Assembly: GCF_028274965.1 (NCBI RefSeq)
Contig: NZ_JAQCNO010000071.1
Span: 69,505-133,504, forward strand
Source: Natronomonas sp.
Lineage (GTDB): Archaea > Halobacteriota > Halobacteria > Halobacteriales > Haloarculaceae
Reading direction: 5' to 3'
Length of the DNA: 64,000 nt
Shown here: positions 4,093 to 40,521 of the stretch, one piece after another
How positions within the stretch are numbered: position 1 is the stretch's first letter
How the letters are laid out: each line of letters starts with the position of its first letter
Program-made: the position numbers and the translations under genes
The notes under the pieces: model-generated
The model's database searches: none
What the model was told of the DNA's origin: nothing
The model's input: only the letters and a program-made list of their open reading frames with translations

Positions 4093-5024
4093 GCCGGATC
4101 GAAGCCGCGCTCGGGCGGGTCGCCCCCGGGCGGCCCGTGGCGTCGGTCTGCCGTCCGGTCGAGGGAAACAGCGAGGAGACGGCGATCGTGACCTTCGACG
4201 ACGGCGAGCGCCTCGTCCTGCAGTGTTCGGACGATCCGGCGGCCTCGAGGGCCGAAACGCGGCTGGCCCGCGAGATCGGCGCCCGAACGGCGGTGCCGGT
4301 GCCGGATGTGCTCGAGGCGGGGCGGATCGGGAACTGTCGCTACCGGGTGACAGAGCACGTCGAGGGGGAGAACCTCCACAAGCGGTTCGGGGCGCTCGGG
4401 CCCGCGGCGCAAACGCTGATCGCGCGGCGGTTCGGGTGGGCGCTCGGGGCGGTACACGACGCGTTCGGGTTCGATCGGTACGGGAGCCTCGCGGCCGGCG
4501 ACGGCGGGTTGGTCCCAACGGGGGCGGACGCGGGAGCCGGGGCGTACGGTCGGTGGTTCGAGGCGTACGCCGAGGCCGGGATCGACGCGCTGCCGCCGTG
4601 TTTCGAGGACCTCAAGCGGCCGCTCGCCGAGGCGATAGAGCGGGCCGGACCGCCGGCGGACCCGACGCCGCGGCTGTTCCCGTGGGACCTGCGCCCGGGG
4701 AACGCGGTGGTGGCCGACGGGGAGATCGCCGCGTTTCTCGACTGGGGCGGCCCCCTCGCGGCGGGTGCCGGCCTCGCGGTCGCGAAGGCCGAGCGGCTCG
4801 TCTGCGAGTGGTACGTCGAGGATCCCGAGCCGCTCCGGCGGGCGTTTCGGGCGGGCTACGCCTCGGTCCGGCCGGTCACGACGGTGCGGCGGGCGGACCG
4901 ACTCGTCGCGACGGTCCGCTCGGTGGTCGACGGCGACGGCGAGGTGACCCGTCCGGGGTACCCCGAGCGCCAGGGGACCGCGGCCGTGACGTTTCACCGC
5001 GGCCGACTGGAGGCGCTGTTGTGA
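4089..5024 (+). CDS. Aminoglycoside/choline-kinase-like phosphotransferase (APH family)
   Basis: ATG at 4089 overlaps the HAD stop codon (ATGA). Kinase-like catalytic loop WDLRPGNAV and FLDWG are present. Lies in frame inside track ORF 3543..5024. Confidence 0.65.
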   Translation: MSRIEAALGRVAPGRPVASVCRPVEGNSEETAIVTFDDGERLVLQCSDDPAASRAETRLAREIGARTAVPVPDVLEAGRIGNCRYRVTEHVEGENLHKRFGALGPAAQTLIARRFGWALGAVHDAFGFDRYGSLAAGDGGLVPTGADAGAGAYGRWFEAYAEAGIDALPPCFEDLKRPLAEAIERAGPPADPTPRLFPWDLRPGNAVVADGEIAAFLDWGGPLAAGAGLAVAKAERLVCEWYVEDPEPLRRAFRAGYASVRPVTTVRRADRLVATVRSVVDGDGEVTRPGYPERQGTAAVTFHRGRLEALL

Positions 5025-26942: not shown

Positions 26943-28361
26943 TTAGAGGCCCGGCGGGAGTTCGCTCCCCTCGAGCAGGTCGGTCGCCGTGTCTCGATCG
27001 AGCGTGTACGTCTGGGTGTTCACCTGGCCCGCGCCCTCGTAGGGGACGTCCGCGTCGAAGGACGACTCGCCGATCACGCACGGCGCGTTCGCCTGGTGGT
27101 GCGTGGAGTCAAGCGTGGTCGCGCCCCGGGGGTCGTCCTCGTAGGTGTAGCCCTCCATGAAGCTGATGATGTCGTCGGGGTTGGTGCTGCCGGTCTCCTC
27201 GATCGCGTCGGCGTAGATCTGGATCGCCGCCCACGTGCTCCCGCCGGTGAAGGTCGGGTACTCGAGGACGTTGTCGTCGTCCGCGTAGGTCTGCTCGTAG
27301 AAGTCGACGAAGTCCTGGTCGGTCTGCGTGTCGTACGAGCCCGGCCAGTACCACCCGGAGTAGTGGACCCCTTCGGGCATCGTGTCGCCGATGGCCTCGA
27401 AGTTCGTCCCGTCGGCGCCGATGGTGTCGTAGACGTCGACGACCTCGTCGAACAGCCCGGCCTCGGCGGCCTGGGTGGTGAACGTGACCGTATCGCCCGC
27501 CCAGAAGCTCGTAAAGAGGAGGTCCGGGTCGGCGTTCTGGACGTTCGTGATCTGGGGCGTCATGTCGCCCGAGCCGAGTTCGGGGAACTGCGACTCGACG
27601 ACCTCGTAATCGAAGCCGAGCCCGTCGAGGTACGCCTGGAAGTACTCCCAGGTCTGCTGTCCGTACGCGTAGTCCGGCCCCATGTTCGCGATGCGGGTCA
27701 CCTCGTCGCTGTAGTTGTCGACGGTGAACTGCGCGAGGGCGTACGTCATGTGCGACGTGTTGGAGTTCGTCCGGAACAGGTTCGGGATCCCGGCGGCCTC
27801 GCCGTCGCTGTTGTAGTAGTCCCCGTAGGTCTCGGTGTCGTGTTCCGTGATGAACGGCGTCCCGATGTCGGTCAGGGTGACCGGGATGCCGAGTTGTTCC
27901 CACGTCGGGCCGGTGTTCAGCGTGACGCCCGAGGAGGTCATCCCGAGCAGGACGTCGGCGCCGTACTCCTGGGCGAGGCTCCGGACCTGCGCCTGTGGAT
28001 CGTCGCCGTGGTCTCGAACCTGGATCTCGAGGGGACGGCCGTTGACGCCGCCGTTTTCGTTTATCGAGTCGACCGCGGCTTCGGCCGCTGCGGCCGACCC
28101 GGCGCCGAGCGCCTCGGCGAGCCCCGAGAGGAGGTACGTCGCGCCGATGCGGATCGGCTCGCCGCTCGGTCCGTCACCGTTGCCGTTACCGCCGCCACCG
28201 TTGCCGCCGCCGTTGCCGCCACCGCCGTTTCCGTTTCCGTTGCCGGAACAGCCGGCGAGAGAGACAGTTGCACCGGCGCCCGCGGCGGTCAGAAAGCCCC
28301 GTCGGCTGAATCGGTTCGAAAGACCGTCGTTGTCGTGTGATCGCTCACCATGTTCAGACAT
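26943..28361 (-). CDS. ABC transporter substrate-binding lipoprotein (Leu/Ile/Val-binding family)
   Basis: Tat signal RRGFLTAAGAGATVSLAGC, a Gly/Asn-rich linker, then a type-1 periplasmic-binding fold sequence. Confidence 0.8.
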   Translation of the reverse strand: MSEHGERSHDNDGLSNRFSRRGFLTAAGAGATVSLAGCSGNGNGNGGGGNGGGNGGGGNGNGDGPSGEPIRIGATYLLSGLAEALGAGSAAAAEAAVDSINENGGVNGRPLEIQVRDHGDDPQAQVRSLAQEYGADVLLGMTSSGVTLNTGPTWEQLGIPVTLTDIGTPFITEHDTETYGDYYNSDGEAAGIPNLFRTNSNTSHMTYALAQFTVDNYSDEVTRIANMGPDYAYGQQTWEYFQAYLDGLGFDYEVVESQFPELGSGDMTPQITNVQNADPDLLFTSFWAGDTVTFTTQAAEAGLFDEVVDVYDTIGADGTNFEAIGDTMPEGVHYSGWYWPGSYDTQTDQDFVDFYEQTYADDDNVLEYPTFTGGSTWAAIQIYADAIEETGSTNPDDIISFMEGYTYEDDPRGATTLDSTHHQANAPCVIGESSFDADVPYEGAGQVNTQTYTLDRDTATDLLEGSELPPGL

Positions 28362-28403
28362 GACTACTACCCGCTGATGGACACCAGGGTAATAAATGTT
28401 GTT

Positions 28404-28413
28404 TTACATGTAA
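28404..28413. promoter_or_regulatory. Perfect 10-nt palindrome in the divergent liv promoter region
   Basis: ttacatgtaa sits inside the AT-rich 146-nt spacer between the substrate-binding protein gene (start 28361, minus strand) and livH (start 28508). Confidence 0.4.
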
Positions 28414-28507
28414 GCAGACGACTAACGACGATCGCCGCGGTATCGGGCGAAAGACCGGTTCTGTGACGTCGAAAGGTTTAACCTATGAGTGACAGACGTA
28501 GACTATA

Positions 28508-29389
28508 ATGGTAGATGCTGGAATTGTTATCGAACAGATCATTACCGGACTGAGCATCGGGAGTTGGCTGTTTCTCGTCGCCATCGGCCTGAGTCTCGTG
28601 TTCGGTGTGTTGGGTGTACTGAACTTCGCGCACGGCGTCCTGTTCGCGATCGGGGCCTACGTGGCGGTCACGACCGTCCAGTCGGCCGTCGGCAACTTCT
28701 GGATCGGTGTCGTCGCGGCAGCCGTCGTCGTCGGGGTGATCGGCCTCGTCATCGAGATGGGGTTCATCAGACAGCTGTACGGCCGCGCCGAGGAGGACCT
28801 CGATCAGCTGCTTTTGACCTTCGCGTTCGTCCTCATCATCGAGGACATCATCCGGATCATCTTCGGGTCCGGGACCAGACAGATGAGCCCGCCGGCGGTG
28901 TTCGGGTTCACCGTCTCGGCCGCCGGGTTCTCCATCCCCGCCTACCGCCTGTTCGTCATCGCCGTCTCCTTTACCGTGATGGGTGCCATCCTCGTGACGC
29001 TGAAGACGACGAACTTCGGTCGGCTCGTGCGGGCGACATCGAGCGACCGGGACATGGCCTCGCTCCTCGGTGTCAACGTTCCCCGGCTGTACACCATGGT
29101 GTTCGTCATCGGCGCCGCCCTCGCCGGGATCGGCGGGGCCTTCGCCGCGCCGCTGCAGTCGGTCACCCCCGCGCTCGGCGAGACGGTCATCATCGAGGCG
29201 TTCGTCATCGTCGTCATCGGCGGGCTGGGCTCGTTCGTCGGGACGTTCATCGGCGCGTACCTCGTCGGCCTCATGATCGCCGTCGGGAGCATCTTCGCGG
29301 CCGGCGCAGGCGAGCTGTTCCCCTTCATCGCGCTCATCGCCGTGTTGCTTCTGAAACCCGAGGGCCTCGTGGGAGGTGCGGAAGCGTGA
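28508..29389 (+). CDS. livH: Branched-chain amino acid ABC transporter permease (LivH-type)
   Basis: 293-aa polytopic protein with typical LivH N-terminus QIITGLSIGSWLFLVAIGLSLVFGVLGVLNFAHG. Confidence 0.85.
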   Translation: MVDAGIVIEQIITGLSIGSWLFLVAIGLSLVFGVLGVLNFAHGVLFAIGAYVAVTTVQSAVGNFWIGVVAAAVVVGVIGLVIEMGFIRQLYGRAEEDLDQLLLTFAFVLIIEDIIRIIFGSGTRQMSPPAVFGFTVSAAGFSIPAYRLFVIAVSFTVMGAILVTLKTTNFGRLVRATSSDRDMASLLGVNVPRLYTMVFVIGAALAGIGGAFAAPLQSVTPALGETVIIEAFVIVVIGGLGSFVGTFIGAYLVGLMIAVGSIFAAGAGELFPFIALIAVLLLKPEGLVGGAEA

Positions 29390-30156
29390 CGACCGTCCTC
29401 GAAACCGACGGGCTCGAACGCCGCTTCGGGAAGCTGCTCGCGGTCGACGACGTCTCCGTCGCGATCGACAGCGACGACGTCACGAGCATCATCGGCCCGA
29501 ACGGGGCCGGCAAGACGACGTTTTACAACCTCCTGTCGGGGCGGCTCAAGCCGACCGGCGGGACGGTGAAGCTCCTGCCCAGCGGCGGGACGGAACTCGC
29601 CGACATCACCGGGATGGAGCCCTTCGAGATCAACAACAAGGGCCTCTCGCGGGCGTTCCAGATCAACAACATCTTCGAGGGGCTGAGCGTCACCGACAAC
29701 ATCCGCGTCTCGCGGATCAGCCGCGACGACCGGACGCTCGACATCCGGTCGGTCGCGCGCGAAGACGAGGGGCTGACCGAGGCCGCCTGGGAGATCATCG
29801 AGCTCGTCGGCCTCGAAGAGGTCGCCGAGACGCAGTGCGCGAACCTCTCGCACGGCGACAAGCGGAAGGTCGAGATCGCGCTCTCGCTCGGCACCGACCC
29901 GTCCGTCGTGCTGCTCGACGAGCCGACGGCCGGGATGAACGCCACCGAGACCGAGAAGATGGTCGACCTGATCGACGACCTCAACAGACAGACCGACACG
30001 ACGTTCGTGCTCACGGAACACGACATGGGGGTCGTACTGGAGATCTCCGATCGGATCCTCGTCCTCGACGGCGGGGAGCTCATCGCGGACGGCGAACCGG
30101 AGAAGGTGATGCAGAACGAGCAGGTGCGCGAGGCGTACCTCGGGGGTGAAGCATGA
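29386..30156 (+). CDS. livG: Branched-chain amino acid ABC transporter ATP-binding protein (LivG-type)
   Basis: GTG at 29386 overlaps the livH stop (GTGA). Walker A GPNGAGKTT, ABC signature LSHGDKRK and Walker B VLLDEPTAG are present. Confidence 0.85.
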   Translation: MTTVLETDGLERRFGKLLAVDDVSVAIDSDDVTSIIGPNGAGKTTFYNLLSGRLKPTGGTVKLLPSGGTELADITGMEPFEINNKGLSRAFQINNIFEGLSVTDNIRVSRISRDDRTLDIRSVAREDEGLTEAAWEIIELVGLEEVAETQCANLSHGDKRKVEIALSLGTDPSVVLLDEPTAGMNATETEKMVDLIDDLNRQTDTTFVLTEHDMGVVLEISDRILVLDGGELIADGEPEKVMQNEQVREAYLGGEA

Positions 30157-30869
30157 GCACCCTCGAGTTGGAGGACGTCAACGGCTACTACGGCAACAGC
30201 CACATCCTGTACGACCTGGATCTCCAGGTCGATCAAAACGAGGTCGTGGCGCTGCTGGGGCGGAACGGCGCCGGCAAGACGACCACGCTCCGTTCGATCA
30301 CGGGGACGATCCCGCGCCGGGAGGGGCGCATCGAGTTCCGCGGGGAGAACATCGCCGACGACTCCGTCGACGAGATCAGCAACAAGCGGGTCAAGCTCGT
30401 CCCGGAGGAGCGGCGCATCTTCCCGACGCTCACCGTCCACGAGAACCTCCTGTTGTCGCGGGACTCGTGTAAGGGGACCGAGCCCCGCGACGTCGAGGAG
30501 ATGTACGACATCTTCCCCATCCTCGACGACCTCCGGGAGAACAACGGGCGGAACCTCAGCGGCGGCGAACAGCAGATGCTCTCCGTCGCTCGGGCGCTCG
30601 TGCAGAACCCGGATCTCCTGTTGCTCGACGAGCCGACCGAGGGGCTGGCCCCGGTCATCGTCGACGACCTCGAGGAGATCCTCGAGGACATCGTCAGCGA
30701 AGACGTGACCGTCCTCATCACCGAACAGAACGTGGAGTTCGCGCTCGAGCTCTCCGAGCGGGCCTACATCATCGAGAGCGGCGAGAACGCCTGGGACGGA
30801 ACGATCGACGAGCTCCGCGACCGCGAGGACCTCCTCGAGAAGTACCTCTCGGTCGGCGTCGAGGAGTAG
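30153..30869 (+). CDS. livF: Branched-chain amino acid ABC transporter ATP-binding protein (LivF-type)
   Basis: ATG overlaps the livG stop (ATGA). Walker A GRNGAGKTT, signature LSGGEQQM and Walker B LLLDEPTEG are present. Confidence 0.85.
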   Translation: MSTLELEDVNGYYGNSHILYDLDLQVDQNEVVALLGRNGAGKTTTLRSITGTIPRREGRIEFRGENIADDSVDEISNKRVKLVPEERRIFPTLTVHENLLLSRDSCKGTEPRDVEEMYDIFPILDDLRENNGRNLSGGEQQMLSVARALVQNPDLLLLDEPTEGLAPVIVDDLEEILEDIVSEDVTVLITEQNVEFALELSERAYIIESGENAWDGTIDELRDREDLLEKYLSVGVEE

Positions 30870-30924
30870 TCCGGCGCGTTCCGTTCTCGGCCCGGGCGCC
30901 GGGGGCCGATCGGATCCGTCTGTT

Positions 30925-31821
30925 CTACAGGTCGACGCCGTGGTGTTTCAGGTAGCCGTCCGTGACCAGCGCCACGTAAAACGAGCCGACCGCGTCGCCG
31001 TAGGGCGGGGAGATGTCGAGTAGCTCCTCGGCGACAACCCGCCGGGTCGCCTCGGGTGAGCCGGTGGCGTCGTACGCCTCGCGGATCCGCTCGTCGAAGC
31101 GCCGGAGTTCGGTTCGGGCGGTCTCGACGGCCGCCTCGGGCGTCTCCGGCCAGACGCCGTAGTGCGGAAACACGATCAGTTCGGGATCGAGCGCCTCGAT
31201 CCGGTCGATCGACGCCTCACAGACGTCGGGATCGAAGTTCGGGAGGGTCGACGGCGGCACCCACTGTTCGGCCGCCGGCAGGTAGCCGCCGAGTGCCTCG
31301 GCGGCGAAACAGAGCTCCCGTTCGGGGTTGTACACGGCGAAGTGATCCGGCGAGTGCCCCGGCGCGGGGACGAGTTCCAGGCTGTTCGTGCCGATGTCTA
31401 TGGTCGTTCCCGACTCGGGGACGGCGGTGATGTTCTCCTCTGGCACGGGGCGCTGTTCGCCCATCCCCTCGAAGTGTTCGCCCATCGCGCGTCGGCTGCT
31501 CGCGATGAGTTCCGCCGGATCGGCGAGGTGCGGGGCGGTCATCTCGTGGATGTACACGTCGGCGTCGGGCGCGTGCTCAAGCAGGCCGCCCGCGCCGCCG
31601 GCGTGGTCCGTGTGGACGTGTGAGAGGACGATGTTTTCGAGGTCCTCGGGCGGGACGCCGAGCTCCCGGAGCCCCTCGACGACGGTGTCGACGCGGGCGG
31701 CCGCCCCGCTGTCGACGAGCGTCGGCTCGACGTCGTCGAAGAGGTACACCGACGTGAACGACGCGTCGAACAGCTCGGTATCGATCCCGTAGACGCCCTC
31801 CGTCGCTTCGAACGTGGCCAT
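30925..31821 (-). CDS. MBL-fold metallo-hydrolase
   Basis: Metal-binding motif SHVHTDHAGG. A TATA-like box (ttttttata on the minus strand) lies 19 nt upstream of the ATG. Confidence 0.8.
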   Translation of the reverse strand: MATFEATEGVYGIDTELFDASFTSVYLFDDVEPTLVDSGAAARVDTVVEGLRELGVPPEDLENIVLSHVHTDHAGGAGGLLEHAPDADVYIHEMTAPHLADPAELIASSRRAMGEHFEGMGEQRPVPEENITAVPESGTTIDIGTNSLELVPAPGHSPDHFAVYNPERELCFAAEALGGYLPAAEQWVPPSTLPNFDPDVCEASIDRIEALDPELIVFPHYGVWPETPEAAVETARTELRRFDERIREAYDATGSPEATRRVVAEELLDISPPYGDAVGSFYVALVTDGYLKHHGVDL

Positions 31822-31929
31822 GGGGTCGGTTCCGGCGTGGTATAAAAAAGCGTTCGGTGGGCGGGGCGCGGACGGCCCGATGAACAGGAGAACGGAGGGC
31901 GGACGACCGGACGGTCAAAAGCCCGGAGG

Positions 31930-32118
31930 CTACTCCCAGGCGCTCGGAGCGACGCCGAGATACACGACGACGGGGCGGTACGCCAGCGCGACGACGAGGA
32001 CGAAGACGAACTCGAACCAAAAGCCGATGTCGCTCGCAACGGTCCGGACGGCGGTGAGCGTCCCGAAGACCAGCGCCAGCATCACGAGACAGCGGCGCGT
32101 AAACATCAATTTCGCCAT
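31930..32118 (-). CDS. Possible 62-aa two-TM membrane protein
   Basis: MAKLMFTRRCLVMLALVFGTLTAVRTVASDIGFWFEFVFVLVVALAYRPVVVYLGVAPSAWE. It overlaps, in another frame, the read-through tail of the truncated lipoprotein ORF. Confidence 0.3.
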   Translation of the reverse strand: MAKLMFTRRCLVMLALVFGTLTAVRTVASDIGFWFEFVFVLVVALAYRPVVVYLGVAPSAWE

Positions 32119-32398
32119 CAAGGTCGCTTTCGACGTTGAGTTCGCCGTGTAGAATAACGAATTTCGCCCCCTCGTGGGCGGTTCGTCCCGGCGACTCCGG
32201 CGCGTCGATCGTCTTGGTTGTGCGTGTGGCGTACCGGAGCGACAGCGACGTCGTCGGGTCGTCCGGTGTGTGGTTCTCGGCGGTAATCGAGACCGGCTCG
32301 ACCGTCGACTTGGATGTGGATTCATCGGCGTTACTCGTACACCCGGTAAGGCCGACGAGACCGGCGGCCGCTAGCTGGAGGACGTTGCGGCGGCGCAT
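32100..32398 (-). pseudogene. Truncated Tat-lipoprotein gene (DUF4352-like N-terminal part only)
   Basis: Begins MRRRNVLQLAAAGLVGLTGC (twin-arginine plus lipobox) and reads sensibly to ..EGAKFVILHGELNVESDLDGEIDVY. After about codon 100 it degenerates into Arg/Pro-rich read-through that runs into the neighbouring MBL gene (track ORF 31577..32398). Confidence 0.35.
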
Positions 32399-32476
32399 GG
32401 GGACTATCCCTTGCCGGCGTGAAAAATATCTGTCGCTGATTAGATTCCGACATAGTGCCGCTTCAGTCGTGAATCG

Positions 32477-32543
32477 CTAGATTCCAGGAATACAGCCTCT
32501 CTCGGTTAATTCTAGCAGTTTAAGCGTGAAGGGGCACTAATAG
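32477..32543. repeat. Left copy of imperfect direct repeat flanking the islet
   Basis: ctagattccaggaatacagcctctctcggttaattctagcagtttaagcgtgaaggggcactaatag. About 46 of 64 positions match the right copy when aligned by hand. Confidence 0.6.
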
Positions 32544-32545
32544 AA

Positions 32546-32670
32546 CATCCAGTAAATTCGTACTCAGCTAAGAAATCGCCAGAAGACACGCAATCAACCA
32601 CCCCATGGGCAAGCGGCCAAGTCCGTGGCTTGGAGACCTGCTGGGAAACCGGATAAGAACTTACTGGATG
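32546..32670. repeat. Long-range inverted repeat (14 nt, 1 mismatch) enclosing 97 nt
   Basis: catccagtaaattc (32546-32559) pairs with gaacttactggatg (32657-32670). It starts 10 nt downstream of the stop of the 199-aa gene on the minus strand. An inner hairpin ccaag-tccgtgg-cttgg is present. Confidence 0.55.
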
Positions 32671-32679
32671 CTCCACTAG

Positions 32680-33279
32680 CTATGACGAGAGAGTAGGTTT
32701 CTTCCGATGCAGGTAAATTGTCATGCCGACTAGAAGGGCAGTCCCGACGAGTAGCAACGCATCATTAGCGAACGGTGGGAGTCGTATTCGCCCAAAGCCA
32801 AGGATCGTGACGAAGTTACTAAGCGGGTCCAAGAGTGGCAAGTTGAGCCTTGCATACCCGACACCGGGCATAGCGAATCGTGACATGTACGCAACGAACC
32901 CAACAAGGTTGATGACCGTGATCGTGGTCAGTGCGTAAAGGGCGGCTTGGACGCTTCGAGTAGTTCGACGCTTCAGTCCAATCACCGTCGTCGTCCAAAG
33001 CCCTATTCCTACGATTGAGGCGACGTAGAACAACGGTTGCGTTGAGAAGCTTACTGATAAGCTTGCGGCCCGACTTGCAGTAGCGGTATTCCAGAGGCCG
33101 AGCAGAAGAAATACGATTGAGATCGCTGCAATGAAGATGTAGCTGGTTGCTAAATCAGCACCAGGGGTCGAATACTCCCCAGCTTGCTGGTCGATGCTGT
33201 CTTCGAAGACTGCCCCACAATTCGGGCAAACACTCGCGTCTTCATCAACGTCACTCTGGCAGTTTGTACAGACAGGCAT
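32680..33279 (-). CDS. Zinc-ribbon-headed polytopic membrane protein (199 aa), unknown family
   Basis: N-terminus is MPVCTNCQSDVDEDASVCPNCG (CxxC-x10-CPxC), followed by 4-5 hydrophobic segments. Codons are A/T-ending, unlike host genes. Confidence 0.65.
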   Translation of the reverse strand: MPVCTNCQSDVDEDASVCPNCGAVFEDSIDQQAGEYSTPGADLATSYIFIAAISIVFLLLGLWNTATASRAASLSVSFSTQPLFYVASIVGIGLWTTTVIGLKRRTTRSVQAALYALTTITVINLVGFVAYMSRFAMPGVGYARLNLPLLDPLSNFVTILGFGRIRLPPFANDALLLVGTALLVGMTIYLHRKKPTLSS

Positions 33280-33293
33280 TGTTCGCTCTGGTG

Positions 33294-33635
33294 TTACTTC
33301 TGTTTCGTCGCCGTTTCCGCCCCGGATGGTTCTTTGGTTGCCGTCTGGGTACCACTGGACTGTTTTTTTGCGGTCTTTTGCGCTGTCGGTGTCGATCCCT
33401 GTCCACGGTTTCCTTTATCAACTGCATCGGCAATGACTTTGTACGTTGTGCCGAAGATACCGGCGTACAGCGAAACTCCACCGAGCAGAACAACGATAAT
33501 ACCGATAGCTGGTGAGTTCCTGATCAATACGAAGCCCCCAATTGTTAGGACTAGCCCGAATATGAAGACTCCGAGGAGATACCCGAGGAGTCCAAACCCA
33601 TACCTGATGCCCTCCGCAGCACTAACCCGTGCCAT
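33294..33635 (-). CDS. Small two-TM membrane protein with Lys/Thr-rich basic tail (113 aa), holin-like topology
   Basis: Starts MARVSAAEG. It has two TM helices and the tail KGNRGQGSTPTAQKTAKKQSSGTQTATKEPSGAETATKQK. The minus-strand TATA box tttttata lies 20 nt upstream of ATG 33635, so the longer track start at 33680 would contain the TATA box. It ends 14 nt before the next gene. Confidence 0.6.
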   Translation of the reverse strand: MARVSAAEGIRYGFGLLGYLLGVFIFGLVLTIGGFVLIRNSPAIGIIVVLLGGVSLYAGIFGTTYKVIADAVDKGNRGQGSTPTAQKTAKKQSSGTQTATKEPSGAETATKQK

Positions 33636-33655
33636 GGCAGTCATGATACACGGGT

Positions 33656-33663
33656 TATAAAAA
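33656..33663 (-). promoter_or_regulatory. TATA-like box for the two-gene minus-strand operon of the islet
   Basis: Minus-strand tttttata lies 20 nt upstream of ATG 33635. Confidence 0.45.
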
Positions 33664-33729
33664 TAATTTCCGCATACCACAACTGAGTAATCAATGCAAC
33701 CGTATTCGTCGATACATCTTGTCAGAAGG

Positions 33730-33737
33730 TTTAATTA
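33730..33737 (+). promoter_or_regulatory. TATA-like box for the 81-aa zinc-ribbon gene
   Basis: tttaatta lies 24 nt upstream of ATG 33762, a geometry that fits a leaderless transcript. Confidence 0.5.
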
Positions 33738-33761
33738 CGTCACCTCGGTAACCGACATAGC

Positions 33762-34007
33762 ATGAAATGTAGTAACTGTGGGGAAGAAATCCATCCAGAA
33801 GCAAGTCAGTGTCCGTCATGCCAAGCTACATTCAAATCCGAGCAAAATAACTCCCTTCTCGCCAAGATCCCATCGAGTTTTCTCGGCGTCCTTACCGGCT
33901 TCATCGTCCTTCTTATGCTTGTCCCACTTGGAAGTCCAGTCACCGCAATCGGAGCCGCAGCGATACTTACAATTGTCGTGTGGCTCGGCGGTTCATACCT
34001 TAGGTAA
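33762..34007 (+). CDS. Zinc-ribbon-headed two-TM small protein (81 aa), unknown family
   Basis: N-terminus is MKCSNCGEEIHPEASQCPSCQ (CxxC-x10-CPxC), followed by two TM helices. The TATA box tttaatta lies 24 nt upstream of the ATG. Codons are A/T-ending. Confidence 0.65.
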   Translation: MKCSNCGEEIHPEASQCPSCQATFKSEQNNSLLAKIPSSFLGVLTGFIVLLMLVPLGSPVTAIGAAAILTIVVWLGGSYLR

Positions 34008-34050
34008 CAGTTCCTCCCGGTATTACCACTGCGGTCTCAGCGATGAAACA

Positions 34051-34114
34051 CTAGATTGACATGATAGAGCATCTCTCGATTGATTCCAGCAGCTCAAAAT
34101 TGAAGCATCAATAG
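34051..34114. repeat. Right copy of imperfect direct repeat flanking the islet
   Basis: ctagattgacatgatagagcatctctcgattgattccagcagctcaaaattgaagcatcaatag. It ends exactly at the low-GC to high-GC transition. Confidence 0.6.
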
Positions 34115-34342
34115 TGCGGGGCGACCCCGAGGAGGCGGTCGGTGTCCATGCCGGGGGTTCGGGCAGGGGGGTCTCAAAGCTTCCTCTCCGGGCGCCCTCT
34201 CGCGTCCGGCCCGCGAGGCGGAGGCTAAGCCAGCGGGGTCACGGAGGCGAGAACCGAAGACAGGAAGCGAAGCGTCGGATCCGAAAAGACGGCGTTCGGC
34301 GGAGACGGGCGGGGCGGCGAACGGATCGGGATCGGGACCGTC

Positions 34343-34705
34343 TCAGAACGGGGCTTCGGGGCCTTCGTTCCCGTCGTCGCTGCTGGTCTCGCCGGGGAAG
34401 GAGGGCGACGTCTGACCGCCGGCCATGCCCTCGGTGCCGCCGTCCATCCCGGTGTCGGCGTGGACGGTGTCGATCTCCGGGATCTCCTGTGTCATGCGGC
34501 TCTTGATCGCCTGGATCGTCATCGGCGAGATGCCGCACCCCGAGCAGGCCCCGCCGAGCATGACCGTCACCTCGCCCGCCTCGCGGTCGAGGTTCTGGAT
34601 CGCGGCGCTGCCGCCGTGCATCTGGATCTGCGGGAAGTTGCGGCGGAGGAAGTTGCTGATGCGCTCGCGGAGTTCGTCGTCGGAATCGGCCGTTTCGGTG
34701 CTCAT
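34343..34705 (-). CDS. NifU C-terminal-domain (Nfu-type) Fe-S cluster protein
   Basis: Start is ATG at 34705 (MSTETADSDDELRERISNFLRRNFPQIQMHGG). The CxxC motif GGACSGCGISPMT is present, with an acidic tail ending EGPEAPF. Confidence 0.8.
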   Translation of the reverse strand: MSTETADSDDELRERISNFLRRNFPQIQMHGGSAAIQNLDREAGEVTVMLGGACSGCGISPMTIQAIKSRMTQEIPEIDTVHADTGMDGGTEGMAGGQTSPSFPGETSSDDGNEGPEAPF

Positions 34706-34804
34706 AAACCCCCTACGCGGCGCAGCCGTATGAACATTTGGCTCCGGGGTCGCGCGGCCGATGTCTGACGTAGGTTTATTCGGATCGGACGCGGACTCCG
34801 GCGT

Positions 34805-35251
34805 ATGCACACGCGTCGGCACCTCCTCGTCGCGCTCGGGGCCACCGCGACGGCCGGCTGTACGGGCGCACTCGGGAGCGGCGAGGACGGCGAGGGCGAC
34901 GAGACGTCCGGTCGCGTTCGGCTCGAGGAGCTGTCCGTCCAGAACGACCACGCCGCCGCGCGGGACGTACAGGTGGCCGTCGAGGCCGACGGCGACGTGC
35001 GGCACCTCGACACGTACGACCTCGCGGGCGGCGGCGGCCGGCGGACGGTCGACGGCGAGTGGGGCGAGGCGGCGGCCTACCGCGTACACGCGCGTCTCGA
35101 CGGTGGCGACGTGCGGACCGCACACCTCACGCGGGGCATCGAGGCGGACGCCGAGTGCGTCCGGGCGCTGTTGCGCATCGACTCGACCGGCGAGTTGACC
35201 GTCTGGAGCGGGACGGACTGCGGCGACGACCCGGACGGCTCGGAGGACTGA
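34805..35251 (+). CDS. Small Tat-lipoprotein, unknown function
   Basis: Begins MHTRRHLLVALGATATAGC (twin-arginine plus lipobox). The mature part is acidic. Confidence 0.55.
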   Translation: MHTRRHLLVALGATATAGCTGALGSGEDGEGDETSGRVRLEELSVQNDHAAARDVQVAVEADGDVRHLDTYDLAGGGGRRTVDGEWGEAAAYRVHARLDGGDVRTAHLTRGIEADAECVRALLRIDSTGELTVWSGTDCGDDPDGSED

Positions 35252-35274
35252 GAGCGCGGATCGCGGCGCCGAAA

Positions 35275-35583
35275 TCAGCCGAACGTGGCTTCGAGTTCGG
35301 ATTCGAGTTCGGTCCGGTACTCCTCGAGCACCGCCTCGAAGCGCTCCTCCGCGACGGCGACGCCGGTGAGCCGGTCGTAGGGATCGTCGGGCAACTCGAC
35401 GACGAACGACTCCGTGTCGTCGTCGTAGAACGGCTCGGACTCGTTGAGGATCTGCTGGTCGATGCCGTGGATCAGCGTCGAGTCGTAGCGGTCGTTCATC
35501 CGGCTGAAGACGTTCTTGTACGCCTGCTGGAGCTGCGGAAAGAGATCGACGTACTTCTCCTCGTCGAACGTGTCGGCGTCCAT
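35275..35583 (-). CDS. Acidic hypothetical protein (102 aa)
   Basis: Start is ATG at 35583 (MDADTFDEEKYVDLFPQLQQAYKNVFSRMNDRYDSTLIHGIDQQ...). Composition looks globular. Confidence 0.55.
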   Translation of the reverse strand: MDADTFDEEKYVDLFPQLQQAYKNVFSRMNDRYDSTLIHGIDQQILNESEPFYDDDTESFVVELPDDPYDRLTGVAVAEERFEAVLEEYRTELESELEATFG

Positions 35584-35698
35584 ACAGGCGGGTTGTGCGG
35601 CGACAACTAAAAGCCGGTCGGACCGACCGGACGCTCCGGCCGACTGTCGGGGGGTGGGCGAGCGCAACCGCTTTTAGCCCCCGGGGAGACGCGGGGGC

Positions 35699-36169
35699 AT
35701 GTACCGAAGCGGCCGCTTCGTCGCCGAACGGGTCGAGCCCACGTCGGACGAACAGATACAGCCCAACGGCGTCGATCTAACGCTCGATGCGGTGTTCGAA
35801 CAGCGCTCACGCGGCCGGATCGGGCGGGACGGAAAGACCGTCGGCGAGCGCCGGACGGTCACGCCCGACGCGTCCGAGGACTCCGTCTACGAGCTCTCGC
35901 CAGGGGGGTACGTCGTTCGGTACGGCGAGGCGATCGCGATCCCGGAGGGCCACGTCGGCTTCGTCTACCCGCGCTCGTCGCTGCTTCGGAACGCCTGTAC
36001 GGTCGATACGGCGGTCTGGGACGCCGGCTACGAGGGCAGAGGCGAGGGGCTCTTAGAGGTACACAACGGGATCGAACTCGAGGCCGGCGCCCGGATCGCA
36101 CAGCTCGTGTTGGCCCGAGCAGACCACGAGGACACCTACGACGGGAGCTACCAGGGCGAGAACCTCTGA
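35699..36169 (+). CDS. dut: Archaeal-type dUTP diphosphatase (dCTP deaminase/dUTPase superfamily)
   Basis: 156 aa with IQPNGVDLTL, GFVYPRSSLLRN and WDAGYEGRGE motifs of the family. The length fits the dUTPase subgroup. Confidence 0.7.
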   Translation: MYRSGRFVAERVEPTSDEQIQPNGVDLTLDAVFEQRSRGRIGRDGKTVGERRTVTPDASEDSVYELSPGGYVVRYGEAIAIPEGHVGFVYPRSSLLRNACTVDTAVWDAGYEGRGEGLLEVHNGIELEAGARIAQLVLARADHEDTYDGSYQGENL

Positions 36170-36173
36170 GGGG

Positions 36174-36854
36174 TCAGGCCGGGGCGACACCGACCGTCAG
36201 AAGCGTTCCGAACTCGCGGTACCGCTCGATCATCTCCTCGCGGGTCTCCCAGTCGTCGGTCGGAAACGCCGACTCGTCGGGGATCTCGGTCTCCCGGTCT
36301 GGGACGGTGTCCTGGGAGGCGACGAACAGCCCGGCCTCCCGGAACGCCGCCCGGTACTCCGGCATCGACCAGCGCGTCATCTCGACGGCGATGTTCTCTT
36401 CCCACTCGTGGGAGTGGACGTTCTCCTCGTAGTAGTTGACCGCACAGAAGAACGTGCCGCCCGGGCGGAGCACGCGGCGGATCTCCGAGAGCGCCTCGAG
36501 TGGCGCTCTCGCGTAGTAGAAGGCCTCCATCGAGAACACGTGATCGACGGAGTCGGCGGCAAACGGAAGCGCGCCGAAATCGCCCCGGAGGAACCCGACG
36601 TCGTCGTCGGTGTAGCGTCTGGCGTTCCGGAGCATCTCCGGGGCGGCGTCGAGCCCGTAGCTCGCCCCGGCGTCGCCGGCCGCCCGCAGCGCACGGGCGG
36701 CGTACCCCGAGCCCGTCCCCAGATCGAGCACCGCGTCGCCGGGCTCGATCGGCATCCGGGCGAGGACGTGTTTGGCGGTGTGCCAGTGGCGGTCCTCCAT
36801 GCCGCGGTCGCGGCCGTCGGCCGCCCACGCGTCGAACTCGTCGGCGATTCCCAT
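36174..36854 (-). CDS. Class I SAM-dependent methyltransferase
   Basis: Motif [11 protein letters not shown]. Start is ATG at 36854 ([10 protein letters not shown]). Confidence 0.75.
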
Positions 36855-36957
36855 ACGCCCGACACGGCGGGGAGTCAAAAAAGCGACACGCTCGGCCCGC
36901 CGACGCCGCAGGGCGCGAACGCGACGCGAGCGCGGCGCCCCGGACCCCACGTTCGCA

Positions 36958-37476
36958 TCAGACGCCGGTTCGGTGCCACTCCTCGAGGGTGAAGCGGTCG
37001 TGCGGCGTCGTCTCCGCCAGCGTCCACTCGCCTTCGGACCACGCGGGGTAGCGCGTGTCGCCGTCGTACTCGCCGTGGACGCGGCTCAGGAGCATGCGGT
37101 CGAGGTGCGGTTGGAACAGTTCGTACACCGCGCCGCCGCCGATGACGTAGGCCCGCCCGGCGCCCAGCGATCGGAGCCGTTCGACCGCGCTCTCGACGTC
37201 GGCGGCGTGGTACGCGTCGGCGGGATCGTACGCGCGGTCGCGCCGGCTCAGGACGATCTGTGCCCGCCCGGGGAGGTCCTCACGCATCGATTCGAACGTC
37301 CGGCGGCCGAGGACCACCGGATCGTCCGCGATCCGGGCGCGGTACTGCGCCCTGTCGGCCGGGATCGACGCCCAGGGGAGCTCCCCGTCCCGGCCGATGA
37401 CGCCGTTTTCCGAGACCGCGGCGACCGAGATCAGCTCGATGCCGGAGGTGTCCGGGGCGGAGACCCCATCCGTCAT
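36958..37476 (-). CDS. folA: Dihydrofolate reductase
   Basis: [29 protein letters not shown] and VIGGGAVYE motifs are present. Confidence 0.85.
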
Positions 37477-38042
37477 CAGTCGGCCTCGTAGCGCTCACCG
37501 GCCGGGATCGCGACCTCAAGCCAGTTCTCCTCGGGCGGAAGCGGGCACTCGTAGGCCCCGCTGTAGGCGCAAAACGGGTTGTACGCGAGGTTGAAATCCA
37601 GCGTGAACGTCACGCCGTCCTCAAGGGTCCCGTCGTAGTGCAGCTCCATGTACCGGCCGCCGGGGTAGGTCTGTTGGCCCGTCGTCTTGTCGCGGAACGG
37701 GACGAAAAGCGAGTCCGACCGATCGACGCGCTGGTAGCCGACGAGCGTGTGCTCGCCGGTCGACCCGCGCTGGTCGGGGATCTCGAAGCGAAGCAGCGCC
37801 GTCCGCTCGTAGAGCTCCTCGCCGTCGGCGGTCGTCTCCATCGTCACCGTCTCTTGGCTCTCGTCGAGTTCGACCGTCGCCTCGACGCGGTACTCGGGGG
37901 CCGGATCGAAGTAGTCCAGCCCGTCGAACTCCCGGCGGCCCTCCGGGCCGAGCGGCGAGGAGTGCGGAACGCCGAACTTCTCGTCTTTCTGTTCGCGGTG
38001 GGCCTGCAGTTCCGAACGCCAGGCGTCGACATCGAAGTCCAT
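37476..38042 (-). CDS. DUF1684 family protein
   Basis: Start is ATG at 38042 ([11 protein letters not shown]). The C-terminal signature is [25 protein letters not shown]. Its stop overlaps the folA start by 1 nt (TGATG). Confidence 0.7.
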
Positions 38043-38151
38043 ACCGGTAGTGGGGCGTTCGGAAGGATATATCTCCGGATGTCGGCCGGCTCGCCGACGG
38101 GACGGCCGGGCGGTCGATACGTCTTTAGGTGATGACGAGTCAGTTCCGTCC

Positions 38152-40521
38152 GTGTCCACCCCGCCCGACTGGCTGGATATCTTCGGTCACGACGAGCCCT
38201 ACGAGGACCAGGCCGACGGGATCGAGACCGCGATCGAGACGGCCCGCAGCGACGGCTTCGTGGCCATAGAGGGTGCGTGTGGGACCGGCAAGACGATGCT
38301 CGCGCTCACCGCGGGCATCGAGTTGGTCAGGGATCCCGAGTCGTCCTTCGAGCGCGTGTTCGTGCTGACGAGCGTCAAACAGCAGCTCAGACAGTTCGAG
38401 GCCGACCTCCGGACGATCAACGAGAACCTGCCGGCGGCGTACCGCCCCGTGTCGGCGCTGACGCTCGTCGGCAAGGCCGATCTCTGCCCGTACAACCTCG
38501 AGGGCGCCGGCGGCATCGACGGATCGAACGTCTACGAGCGCTGCGAGCGCCTCAGAGAGCGGACCAGGGGGCTCGTCGACGGCGAGACGACGGCCGCCTC
38601 GCTGGTCTCGCGGGCCGAGAGCCAACAGATCGGGCTGGCCGACTCGGGCGGCGGGGCGACGTACTTAGAGGCCGCCGGCGAGCCGACGCCGTTCGCCCCA
38701 GAGATGCCGAACGCGGCGGAGGGCGACACCGAGTACTGTCCGTTCTACGCGGGCTTTCTCGAGGACCTCCCGGAGGACGGCGATCCCCTCGAGGCCGTCC
38801 CCTTCGACCCGACGGATCGCGGCGTGATCGACGCCGGGGACCTCGTCGAACTCGCGGCGGGCCACGGCAGCTGTCCGCACTCGGTGATGGGCGCGCTCCT
38901 CCCGCACGTCGAGGTGCTCGTCGGGAACTACTACCACGCGTTCGACCCGACGACGGTCGAGTCGTTCACCGGCGGGCTCATCGACGACGAGACGTTCGTC
39001 GTCTGCGACGAGGCGCACATGCTCGAACCGCGGGTCCGCGGTCTCGTCGGCGACGGCGTCTCCGATCGGGCGCTGGAGGACGCCGAAAGCGAGCTCTCGC
39101 GCGTCATCGAGCCGCTCGCCGCCGTCGAGGAGGCCGGCGCGGACGCCCGCCGCGGCGGGGAGGCCGAGGAGACGGCCGTAGCGATCCGCTCGGAGCTCGA
39201 AAAGACGGACGTGACTCTCGGGGAGCTCCGGGACACGCGGCGGTTTGTGTCGGCGCTCGGCGACCGCTTGGGATCGCGCGTGGAGGCGTACCTCGAGGAG
39301 TCGACTCCGGGGTGGCGCGGGCGCCTCGCGGACCTCGACGACGAGGAGATCCCGCTTCGGGACCCGGAGACCCCCGCGACGGACGAGTTGACGCGGTGGG
39401 CGAACGAGCGGGGCTTCGACGCGCGGCTCTGGAGGCGCGCCGAGAGCGTCTGTGCCGTCGCCGCGCGGGTGCTCGACGCCGTAGAGGACGACGAAAAGCG
39501 CCGCGCCGCGCCGGCGGTCGGCCGGACGCTCGCGCTGTGGCGGCGGGCGGACCACACCGACTTCTTCCGGGAGATCGAACTCGAACGGACGTGGGACGAC
39601 GCCCGGCCGGCCGAGGCGTGGCAGCGGGCCTACACCGCCAGGTACAGCCTGCACAACTGCCTGCCGGCGGACGTGATCGGCGAGCGGCTCGACGCCTTCG
39701 GCGGCGGCGTCCTGATGAGCGCGACGCTCGAACCGCTCGACGTGTTCGCGGAGGTGACCGGGCTCCGTCACCTCGCGGAGGAGGCCGACCGGCCCGTCGT
39801 CGAGCGGACGTACGGCCTCGAGTTCCCGCCGCAGAACCGCGCCTCCTTCGCCGTTTCGGCGCCGAAGTTCACCTACGAGAACCGCGGCGATCCCGGGGCG
39901 TCGGAGTCGAGGGCGACGGAGGCACGGACGCCGGCGCGGACGGCGCACGCCCGCGCGATCAGACAGGTCGCGGCGGCGCCGGGGAACGTCCTCGTCTGTA
40001 TGCCCTCCTACCGGGAGGCGGAGTGGGCCGCCGGGGTGCTCGAAGCGGCCGACAAGCCCGTGCTCCGCGACGAGGCGGCCGACGACGTGGCGACCGAGCG
40101 GCTGAAACAGGAGTTCTTCGACGGCGAGCCGAAGGTGCTCGTCACCAGCCTCCGGGGGACGCTCACGGAGGGCGTCGACTACCGCGGCGATCGCCTCGCG
40201 GCCGCCATCGTCTGTGGCGTTCCGATCATCAACACGGCCAGCCCGCGGACCCGGGCGGTCCGGACGGCGTACGACCGGGCCTTCGGCGACGGCTTCGAGT
40301 CCGCCCTCGCCGTCCCGGCCGTCCGGAAGGCGAGACAGGCGGTCGGCCGCGTGATCCGCGGGCCCGAGGAGTGCGGCGTCCGCGTGCTCTGCGACGAGCG
40401 CTACGCGACGGAGTCGTGGGACAGCGTCAGACACCTCCTCGGCGAGGCCGAACGCGAGGAGTTCCGGCCGGTCGGCGCGGAGATGCTCGAGTACGCCCTA
40501 GAGCAGTTCTGGGAGCGATAA
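38152..40521 (+). CDS. XPD/Rad3-family (DinG-like) Fe-S DNA helicase
   Basis: Walker A GACGTGKT and DEAH box VCDEAHML are present, with four Cys (LCPY, RCER, YCPF, SCPH) between them, matching a 4Fe-4S domain. The start is uncertain: I favour GTG 38152, the track gives 38050. Confidence 0.8.
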   Translation: MSTPPDWLDIFGHDEPYEDQADGIETAIETARSDGFVAIEGACGTGKTMLALTAGIELVRDPESSFERVFVLTSVKQQLRQFEADLRTINENLPAAYRPVSALTLVGKADLCPYNLEGAGGIDGSNVYERCERLRERTRGLVDGETTAASLVSRAESQQIGLADSGGGATYLEAAGEPTPFAPEMPNAAEGDTEYCPFYAGFLEDLPEDGDPLEAVPFDPTDRGVIDAGDLVELAAGHGSCPHSVMGALLPHVEVLVGNYYHAFDPTTVESFTGGLIDDETFVVCDEAHMLEPRVRGLVGDGVSDRALEDAESELSRVIEPLAAVEEAGADARRGGEAEETAVAIRSELEKTDVTLGELRDTRRFVSALGDRLGSRVEAYLEESTPGWRGRLADLDDEEIPLRDPETPATDELTRWANERGFDARLWRRAESVCAVAARVLDAVEDDEKRRAAPAVGRTLALWRRADHTDFFREIELERTWDDARPAEAWQRAYTARYSLHNCLPADVIGERLDAFGGGVLMSATLEPLDVFAEVTGLRHLAEEADRPVVERTYGLEFPPQNRASFAVSAPKFTYENRGDPGASESRATEARTPARTAHARAIRQVAAAPGNVLVCMPSYREAEWAAGVLEAADKPVLRDEAADDVATERLKQEFFDGEPKVLVTSLRGTLTEGVDYRGDRLAAAIVCGVPIINTASPRTRAVRTAYDRAFGDGFESALAVPAVRKARQAVGRVIRGPEECGVRVLCDERYATESWDSVRHLLGEAEREEFRPVGAEMLEYALEQFWER

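Follow-up and report, generated by a model that had tools for sequence, protein, structure and literature searches.

A small islet of foreign composition lies at positions 32452-34114 of a 64,000-nt stretch of Natronomonas sp. DNA (positions 69,505 to 133,504 of contig NZ_JAQCNO010000071.1, assembly GCF_028274965.1; this whole stretch is hereafter called the window). An earlier note on this DNA had seen in it a possible remnant of a provirus. Here, I argue that the islet is very likely something else, namely a non-autonomous composite transposon, which is bounded at both ends by copies, in direct orientation, of one 89-nt imperfect palindromic repeat (PE-A and PE-C), a miniature inverted-repeat transposable element (MITE) related to insertion sequences (IS) of the IS630 family.

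The composition of the islet sets it apart from its surroundings. Its G+C content is 0.505 over 32456-34110, whereas the 2 kb on either side have 0.672 and 0.692; this is about five standard deviations under the mean of the whole window (0.694, standard deviation 0.045, in 400-nt windows), and no other extended low-GC tract is found in the 64 kb. Along the same line, the G+C content of third codon positions (GC3) is 0.57, 0.54 and 0.48 in the three open reading frames (ORFs) of the islet versus 0.85-0.95 in the neighbouring genes, which bears out the earlier description of a foreign, low-GC islet with altered codon third positions. The G+C figure of 40-45 % given at that time holds locally, as the minimum inside the islet is 0.457 to 0.47, and does not hold for the islet as a whole, whose mean is about 51 %. 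Of the bounds then proposed, 32400-34114, the right one is exact and the left one has to be moved to 32452; DNA that is additional to that of a close relative (contig L053, see below) reaches further left, to 32093. A second and shorter low-GC dip, at 28201-28700 (0.50-0.54), is an ordinary divergent promoter region between the genes of an ABC substrate-binding protein and of a permease.

Bracketing MITEs and their IS630-family relatives

PE-A occupies positions 32452-32540 and PE-C positions 34026-34114, both on the plus strand and both 89 nt long, the flanking 4-mers being included in the length of PE-A; in nhmmer searches they score 89 bits (E=4e-26) and 44 bits (E=3e-12), respectively, PE-C being the more degenerate copy. 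The repeat, whose consensus is CTAGTGCCGCTTCAGCCGTGAATCGCTAGATTC...GAATTCTAGCAGTTCAGACCTGAAGCGGCACTAG, is made up of two arms with a ~20-nt linker between them and holds no transposase gene; the hairpin of PE-A has a z-score of -4.1. These ends were overlooked in the earlier reading, and when the islet is compared with plasmids by blastn only its terminal ~90 nt find matches. Solo copies of the repeat are present in 15 records of haloarchaeal plasmids, the copy being full length in 9 of them, with hosts including Natrinema, Haloarcula, Salinibaculum, Salinirubellus, Salinigranum and Halorubrum, as well as in 18 metagenome loci; the flanks differ at every plasmid or metagenome copy, and nhmmer E-values go down to 1e-27. 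A scan of 31800-34800 against Rfam gave no match. The string GATTAGAT, common to two PE flanks, was rejected as a motif, for its frequency is at chance level.

Plasmid matches to a single arm of the repeat led to a 1225-bp IS, present in Halapricum desulfuricans (L041:5001-6225; retrieved loci are designated by L numbers) and in Halobellus ramosii (L042:3806-5030). The two ends of the IS in L041 match the arms of the repeat at 32/40 and 28/40 bases, and those of L042 do the same; the ORFs of both carry the domains HTH_32 (1.7e-16) and DDE_3 (2.9e-27), and their annotation places them in the IS630 family. A third autonomous IS of the IS630 type, at L033:1058-2359, encodes a transposase that shares 41-60 % identity with the one in L041, and lies directly against a copy of the 89-nt MITE, with the junction 4-mer in common, so that an IS and its MITE co-occur in one genome. 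Given this match between its arms and the terminal inverted repeats (TIRs) of the 1225-bp IS, the 89-nt repeat is a classical MITE, in which the two ends of an IS630-family element are fused. The further marks of an IS630-derived MITE are found in addition to the matching TIRs, i.e. a short length without transposase, dispersal among unrelated flanks, and a TA-centred NTAN target with its duplication.

Two other observations concern this MITE. Three of its copies (L029, L031 at 4700-4806, and L036) carry at the internal CTAG a 19-nt palindromic insert (TACTCAGCTCTGAGTCTAG), which has the look of a footprint left by excision, or of a very small insertion of some other element that targets CTAG. 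On the Salinigranum marinum plasmid NZ_CP100462.1 (L020:3307-4079), two inverted copies of the MITE bracket one gene for a DUF5518 membrane protein; this unit, absent from every other plasmid searched, may be a second MITE-bracketed cassette.

Empty site, target duplication and the split host gene

The neighbouring NifU-like protein led to L053, a metagenome contig of 104 kb, which is 92.6-94.7 % identical to the window over 28336-38709 and lacks window positions 32093-34110; in that place it has an intact ORF of 65 codons (L053:4561-4758, MDTDRLLGVAPHYLVMLALVFG..., with two transmembrane segments), which contains one CTAT. The window holds the same gene in two pieces, both on the minus strand: its 5' 13 codons (MDTDRLLGVAPHY) lie at 34111-34149, are collinear with L053:4561-4758 and end at PE-C, and its 3' 52 codons lie at 31930-32092, the alignment with L053 resuming at 32092. 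Once rejoined, the two pieces give the 65-aa protein of L053 with one change, Y13C. By this comparison, the insertion split a small host membrane-protein gene of 65 codons. The earlier note had suggested comparing the interval from the metallo-beta-lactamase (MBL) hydrolase to the NifU-like gene in relatives, where the presence of the three genes in all of them, with host-like composition, would speak against a foreign islet; the outcome was the opposite, and the description of the islet as self-contained, foreign and recently acquired holds, since L053 lacks it between closely similar flanks. Natronomonas aquatica and four other genomes are uninformative on the empty site, for synteny breaks just beside the MBL gene. 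In N. aquatica (L005, compared with window 30153-32000) the ABC-ATPase is 91 % identical and the MBL hydrolase 73 %, the order being kept until beside the MBL gene; within the genus, this part of the host DNA is a rearrangement boundary, and it is so irrespective of the insertion.

The unit is also found in other contexts. Contigs L007-L014, all of ≤2.5 kb and of ~49 % G+C throughout, hold all three genes, arranged as in the window, and the unit is ~94 % identical in at least three sequence contexts other than that of the window. By blastn, the homology between the window and L007-L010 breaks off at 32453 on the left; on the right, that with L007, L008, L013 and L014 stops at 34113/34114 (at 34114 for L007 and L008). 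The flanks of the window, of L007/L008 and of L009/L010 are mutually unrelated, and L013/L014 share the PE-C end and have other flanks, each outer end of the unit being thereby joined to three different flanks. Because homology ends at the outer MITE ends and the flanks are unrelated, the islet is a discrete unit residing in several contexts.

The unit has one copy of its target duplication at the left end (32452-32455) and one at the right end (34111-34114); the duplication reads ATAG, or CTAT on the opposite strand, and corresponds to the single CTAT of the empty site in L053. The outer 4-mers of the composite match each other both in the window (ATAG/ATAG) and in L007 (GTAG/GTAG), whereas the inner 4-mers in the window, CTAA and the non-TA CCAC, differ from the outer ones; matching 4-mers around the composite, together with differing inner ones, indicate that the whole unit has transposed. 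Most solo copies of the MITE lie between CTAG and CTAG, which is uninformative since this target is palindromic. Among the copies in other targets, the same 4-mer is found on both sides in L016 (CTAC), L031 (CTAA), L037 (TTAG) and L040 (ATAG), and in L033, where the 4-mers disagree, the neighbouring IS accounts for the discordance. These sites suggest that the IS630 group in question duplicates four bases (NTAN) and not two. Two copies of an element, one duplication around the unit, multiple loci and an empty site are what a composite transposon should display, and all are found here, with the caveat of an extra 359 nt.

The extra piece (32093-32451, minus strand) is absent from L053 and consists of the promoter and the first 102 codons of a twin-arginine translocation (Tat) lipoprotein gene, with a G+C of 0.61, an in-frame GC3 of 0.8-0.9 and a TATA-like box. 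The window DNA absent from L053 amounts with it to 2018 nt and not to 1659 (1655 nt of element and one copy of the duplication), and the order of junctions along the minus strand is CTAT, PE-C...PE-A, CTAT, fragment, CTGT, host gene. The ORF at 31577-32398 (minus strand, 273 aa) is a chimera in which the 102 lipoprotein codons are fused out of frame to the 3' part of the split host gene, the fusion being marked by a switch in the GC3 frame; it only resembles a frameshifted lipoprotein gene, and is therefore a gene-calling artefact made by the insertion. Neither the window nor the retrieved loci contain another copy of the fragment, and no plasmid homologue was found; its far end was considered as a MITE pseudo-end and discarded as too weak (7 of the first 12 bases in a count by eye). 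On the simplest reading, the composite would earlier have resided upstream of the lipoprotein gene in another high-GC replicon, and would then have moved, or recombined, together with 359 nt of flank; a history of two events at the same CTAT may be an alternative source of this piece.

The three-gene cargo and the nested MITE

The coordinates of the three ORFs, as well as the 14-nt gap and the 126-nt spacer between them, were all correctly given in the earlier note. Gene 1 (33762-34007, plus strand), divergent from the other two, encodes a protein of 81 aa with an N-terminal zinc ribbon, for which Pfam hits are weak, and two transmembrane helices. Gene 2 (33294-33635, minus strand) encodes a 113-aa protein made of a two-helix transmembrane hairpin and a disordered K/T/Q-rich tail; its start at 33635 is supported by its homologues, which begin with MARVSAAEG. 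Gene 3 (32680-33279, minus strand) encodes a protein of 199 aa with an N-terminal zinc ribbon (Pfam Zn_Ribbon_1, 25.6 bits for a cut-off of 25) and at least four transmembrane helices. Hydrophobic segments of transmembrane length number four, two and two in the 199-, 113- and 81-aa proteins, respectively, in agreement with the membrane character previously ascribed to all three; a zinc ribbon of the CxxC...CxxC kind is N-terminal in two of them (Pfam Zn_Ribbon_1, at or near threshold). That none of the three could be placed in a named family was equally confirmed, as scans with Pfam, PHROGs, PADLOC and NCBIfam gave generic zinc ribbons only, with no significant match beyond them in Pfam and NCBIfam.

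The spacer between the divergent genes (33636-33761, 126 nt, 41 % G+C) has a TATA-like box ~25 nt before either start codon. In L007, L013 and L012 both boxes keep their place though the sequence around them has diverged, and the one on the side of the 113-aa gene is conserved also in L046 and L045. As regards the divergent TATA boxes of the earlier note, a conserved A/T-rich box before each start is thus found, its function as a promoter being inferred only; the spacer is probably the divergent promoter region of the cargo.

Among 5.8 billion proteins, the 199-aa protein has three homologue clusters (at 90 %), to which L046 is to be added. An exhaustive HMMER search of 1.84 billion representative proteins (50 % clustering) returned two full-length representatives of this family, the remaining hits covering the zinc ribbon alone or little beyond. 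The 113-aa family comprises 10 homologue clusters, all metagenomic, whose alignment displays a conserved N-terminus (MARVSAAEGIRYG), an invariant motif of the YKVIAD.V.KG type after the second helix, and a variable K/T/Q-rich tail; in the AlphaFold2 model of the 113-aa protein the helical hairpin has a predicted local distance difference test (pLDDT) score of 83-94 and the tail is disordered. The AlphaFold2 model of the 199-aa protein, with a pLDDT of 51, was discarded as unusable. Synonymous codon differences equal or exceed non-synonymous ones in all comparisons but one (5 vs 7, for the 113-aa gene and L013), the counts being 47 vs 9 for the 113-aa gene and L012, and 17 vs 9 for the 199-aa gene and L007. 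Codon differences of this kind argue that the three cargo genes are real and under purifying selection.

L046 keeps the order and the orientation of the three genes at 40, 70 and 31 % identity for the 81-, 113- and 199-aa proteins, respectively, and L044 and L045 keep the divergent 81-/113-aa pair alone; in these three loci the homologues of the 81-aa protein are 32-40 % identical and occupy the same divergent position. Beside the conserved pair, L044 (1278-2288, 336 aa) and L046 (2082-2324, 80 aa) have further paralogous genes with zinc ribbon and transmembrane segments. The zinc-ribbon N-termini of the cargo proteins and of their paralogues are mutually 36-56 % similar over ~28 residues, which suggests a modular family of zinc-ribbon/transmembrane proteins with swapped membrane domains.

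A MITE of a second family, PE-B (32537-32679, plus strand, 143 nt), has the TIR CTAGTGGAYGRTCCAGTAARTYC and 26-nt inverted arms; it adjoins PE-A, and the CTAA 4-mer at their junction is common to both. The family of PE-B also ends in CTAG, and relatives of ~140-150 nt with the same ends are found in plasmids of Haloterrigena turkmenica (L051) and of Natrinema (L052). In the variant of L013/L014 PE-B is missing and other sequence takes its place, the homology ending at 32677. Since each insertion of such elements would re-create CTAG-like sites at its ends, a clustering of CTAG-targeting elements would be expected.

Mechanism, rival explanations and known systems

The composite transposon proposed here would work as follows. 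PE-A and PE-C, in direct orientation, bracket a 1.3-kb cargo made of the three genes with their own predicted divergent promoters and of the unrelated MITE PE-B; the outer ends amount to one left-type and one right-type IS end, the unit thereby mimicking one long IS to the transposase. A DDE transposase of the IS630 family, acting in trans, would bind the outer ends, cut out the unit and paste it into an NTAN site, with a preference for CTAG, with CTAT as the site used here, and with duplication of all four bases. The unit would have been built in DNA of ~50 % G+C, and would recently have entered a Natronomonas-like chromosome of 69 % G+C, splitting the 65-codon host gene; the 359-nt lipoprotein fragment would have come along, probably from an earlier insertion site.

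Several facts weigh against this proposal. PE-C is degenerate, with 44 bits as compared to 89 for PE-A in nhmmer, and the 359 nt between PE-A and the resumed host gene have no MITE end and a far junction that reads CTGT and not CTAT; a simple two-ended transposition into the site does not account for everything. Nearly all the other composite copies lie on contigs of ≤2.5 kb from unidentified organisms. The four-base duplication is backed by six concordant cases and contradicted by an unexplained discordant one (L019), and textbook IS630 elements duplicate TA only. In addition, no transposase of the IS630 type is encoded in the 64-kb window, so that mobility is here a historical inference.

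A chimeric join made during metagenome assembly might also place a low-GC block in a high-GC contig, and the window does look like part of a metagenome-type assembly. Other contigs break off inside the repeats or at them (L008, L021). Yet the same junction of host, lipoprotein fragment and PE-A is found at 100 % identity in L021, a separately stored Logan assembly from another run, and the very target seen in L053, duplicated over 4 nt, together with a cleanly split ORF, is not what an error of assembly would bring about; this explanation is scarcely credible. Movement by site-specific recombination, with the repeats as integron attC or other att sites, would fit repeats that are imperfect palindromes, similar in size to attC, with hairpin folds, and that mark the borders of modules (PE-A/PE-B and PE-B/cargo). 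It is nevertheless highly improbable, because the arms of the repeat match the ends of IS630-family elements encoding DDE transposases, the 4-nt direct duplications vary with the site, as is the mark of staggered-cut transposition, and the empty site keeps no copy of the repeat. Moreover, no recombinase is found beside the annotated copies, nor a cassette array, the window having been scanned for integrases in a non-exhaustive manner.

The foreign composition of the islet and its small membrane and zinc-ribbon ORFs, which are common in archaeal viruses, are the features on which a provirus remnant could be argued, together with weak PHROG matches to families of unknown function. The earlier note had itself listed no integrase, transposase, tRNA or capsid-like gene; this proves right, as there is no tRNA in the window, and integrase, transposase and capsid families find no match in the islet by Pfam, PHROGs, PADLOC and NCBIfam scans. 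There is no att/tRNA site either. Among 50,697 phage records, no match was found for the 113-aa protein or for the DNA of the islet, and 2.9 million IMG/VR contigs gave none for the 113- and 199-aa families and no genuine one for the bracketing repeat; a match of IMG/VR to one repeat arm (L022) was set aside as a chance one, being inside the HNH gene of a bacterial phage. Since the 1.66-kb unit has IS630-type MITEs with a target duplication as its ends, and recurs with these exact ends without viral neighbours, it is hardly conceivable that it derives from an integrated virus, and the provirus interpretation of the earlier note has to be given up.

What the cargo does is a distinct matter, and one compatible with a composite transposon. 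A membrane-acting module for toxin-immunity, holin-like lysis, exclusion or defence, the second idea of the earlier note, might favour retention of the transposon: the two-helix hairpin of the 113-aa protein with its charged, disordered tail is of holin-like architecture, 2 of 11 members of its family give sub-threshold hits to Phage_holin_3_6 (E=0.09), and the module keeps its gene order, its own predicted promoters and the signature of purifying selection. Small zinc-ribbon/transmembrane proteins occur in phage families too, as in the weak match to phrog_6586 (E=6e-5), a phage family of unknown function. Still, the fold itself, a helical hairpin, is too unspecific to count, none of the 5027 PADLOC models, which cover the systems described by 2023, matches any ORF, and no significant match was obtained in Pfam or NCBIfam, in profile searches against PDB sequences, or with Foldseek for the 113-aa model against PDB and BFVD (none with E < 0.1); relatives are likewise lacking in the phage and IMG/VR collections, and the cargo has no match in plasmid records. 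Such a function is therefore rather unlikely. With low confidence, the cargo may be described as a conserved three-gene membrane module composed of a holin- or toxin-like hairpin protein and of two zinc-ribbon membrane partners. It is a speculative and quite doubtful extension that pairs of PE repeats might be a general shuttle of self-promoted membrane modules from low-GC to high-GC haloarchaea, the present cargo being an undescribed system for addiction, exclusion or lysis control.

Comparable MITE-bracketed units of bacteria are the so-called 'integron mobilization units' and the Tn3-derived TIME-COMP elements. The islet resembles bacterial units of this kind in having two transposase-less inverted-repeat copies around passengers, one target duplication and a transposase in trans, and differs from them by its archaeal host, by a MITE derived from IS630, by an orphan membrane module in lieu of resistance genes, by the nesting of a second MITE family and by the 359 nt of flanking DNA carried along. 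The Bacillus cereus group has mobile insertion cassettes (MICs), in which passengers without transposase are flanked by IS-type inverted repeats and mobilisation takes place in trans; MICs are not known to carry more than the terminal repeats of a single IS (IS231), whereas each end of the islet is a complete and separately dispersed MITE. With IS630/Tc1-mariner IS and Stowaway-type MITEs, the islet has in common TIRs that match IS630 ends (of elements with helix-turn-helix and DDE_3 domains), a TA-centred NTAN target and a preference for CTAG; it departs from them in that flanking bases co-vary, which implies a four-base duplication, and in that two MITEs jointly carry genes. Class 1 integrons bracketed by two MITEs are described in Acinetobacter (cited in the review PMC10969869), and IS630 elements are known in archaea (PMC13343696). 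In Haloquadratum walsbyi, both MITEs and small mobile repeats (SMRs) have been documented (Dyall-Smith et al. 2011, PMC3119063). SMRs and PE are alike in being haloarchaeal, 80-110 bp long, provided with prominent TIRs, devoid of transposase and often placed beside other mobile elements; SMRs are however described as lacking a target duplication and as having ends unrelated to any transposon, whereas PE has a duplication and transposon-related ends, and no PE sequence is found in the supplementary tables of that work. In the searchable literature no archaeal gene cassette bracketed by MITEs was found, whereas bacterial ones have been described.

To sum up, a compositional anomaly is explained here by a concrete mechanism at base-pair resolution, with its ends, its target, its empty site and a candidate transposase family. 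The case shows a MITE-bracketed unit that carries genes from DNA of ~50 % G+C into a haloarchaeal chromosome of 69 % G+C, and its non-palindromic target sites hint at a duplication of four bases, not two, by this IS630 group. A further outcome is a three-gene membrane module that is small, conserved and amenable to experiment, without known relatives in named families.

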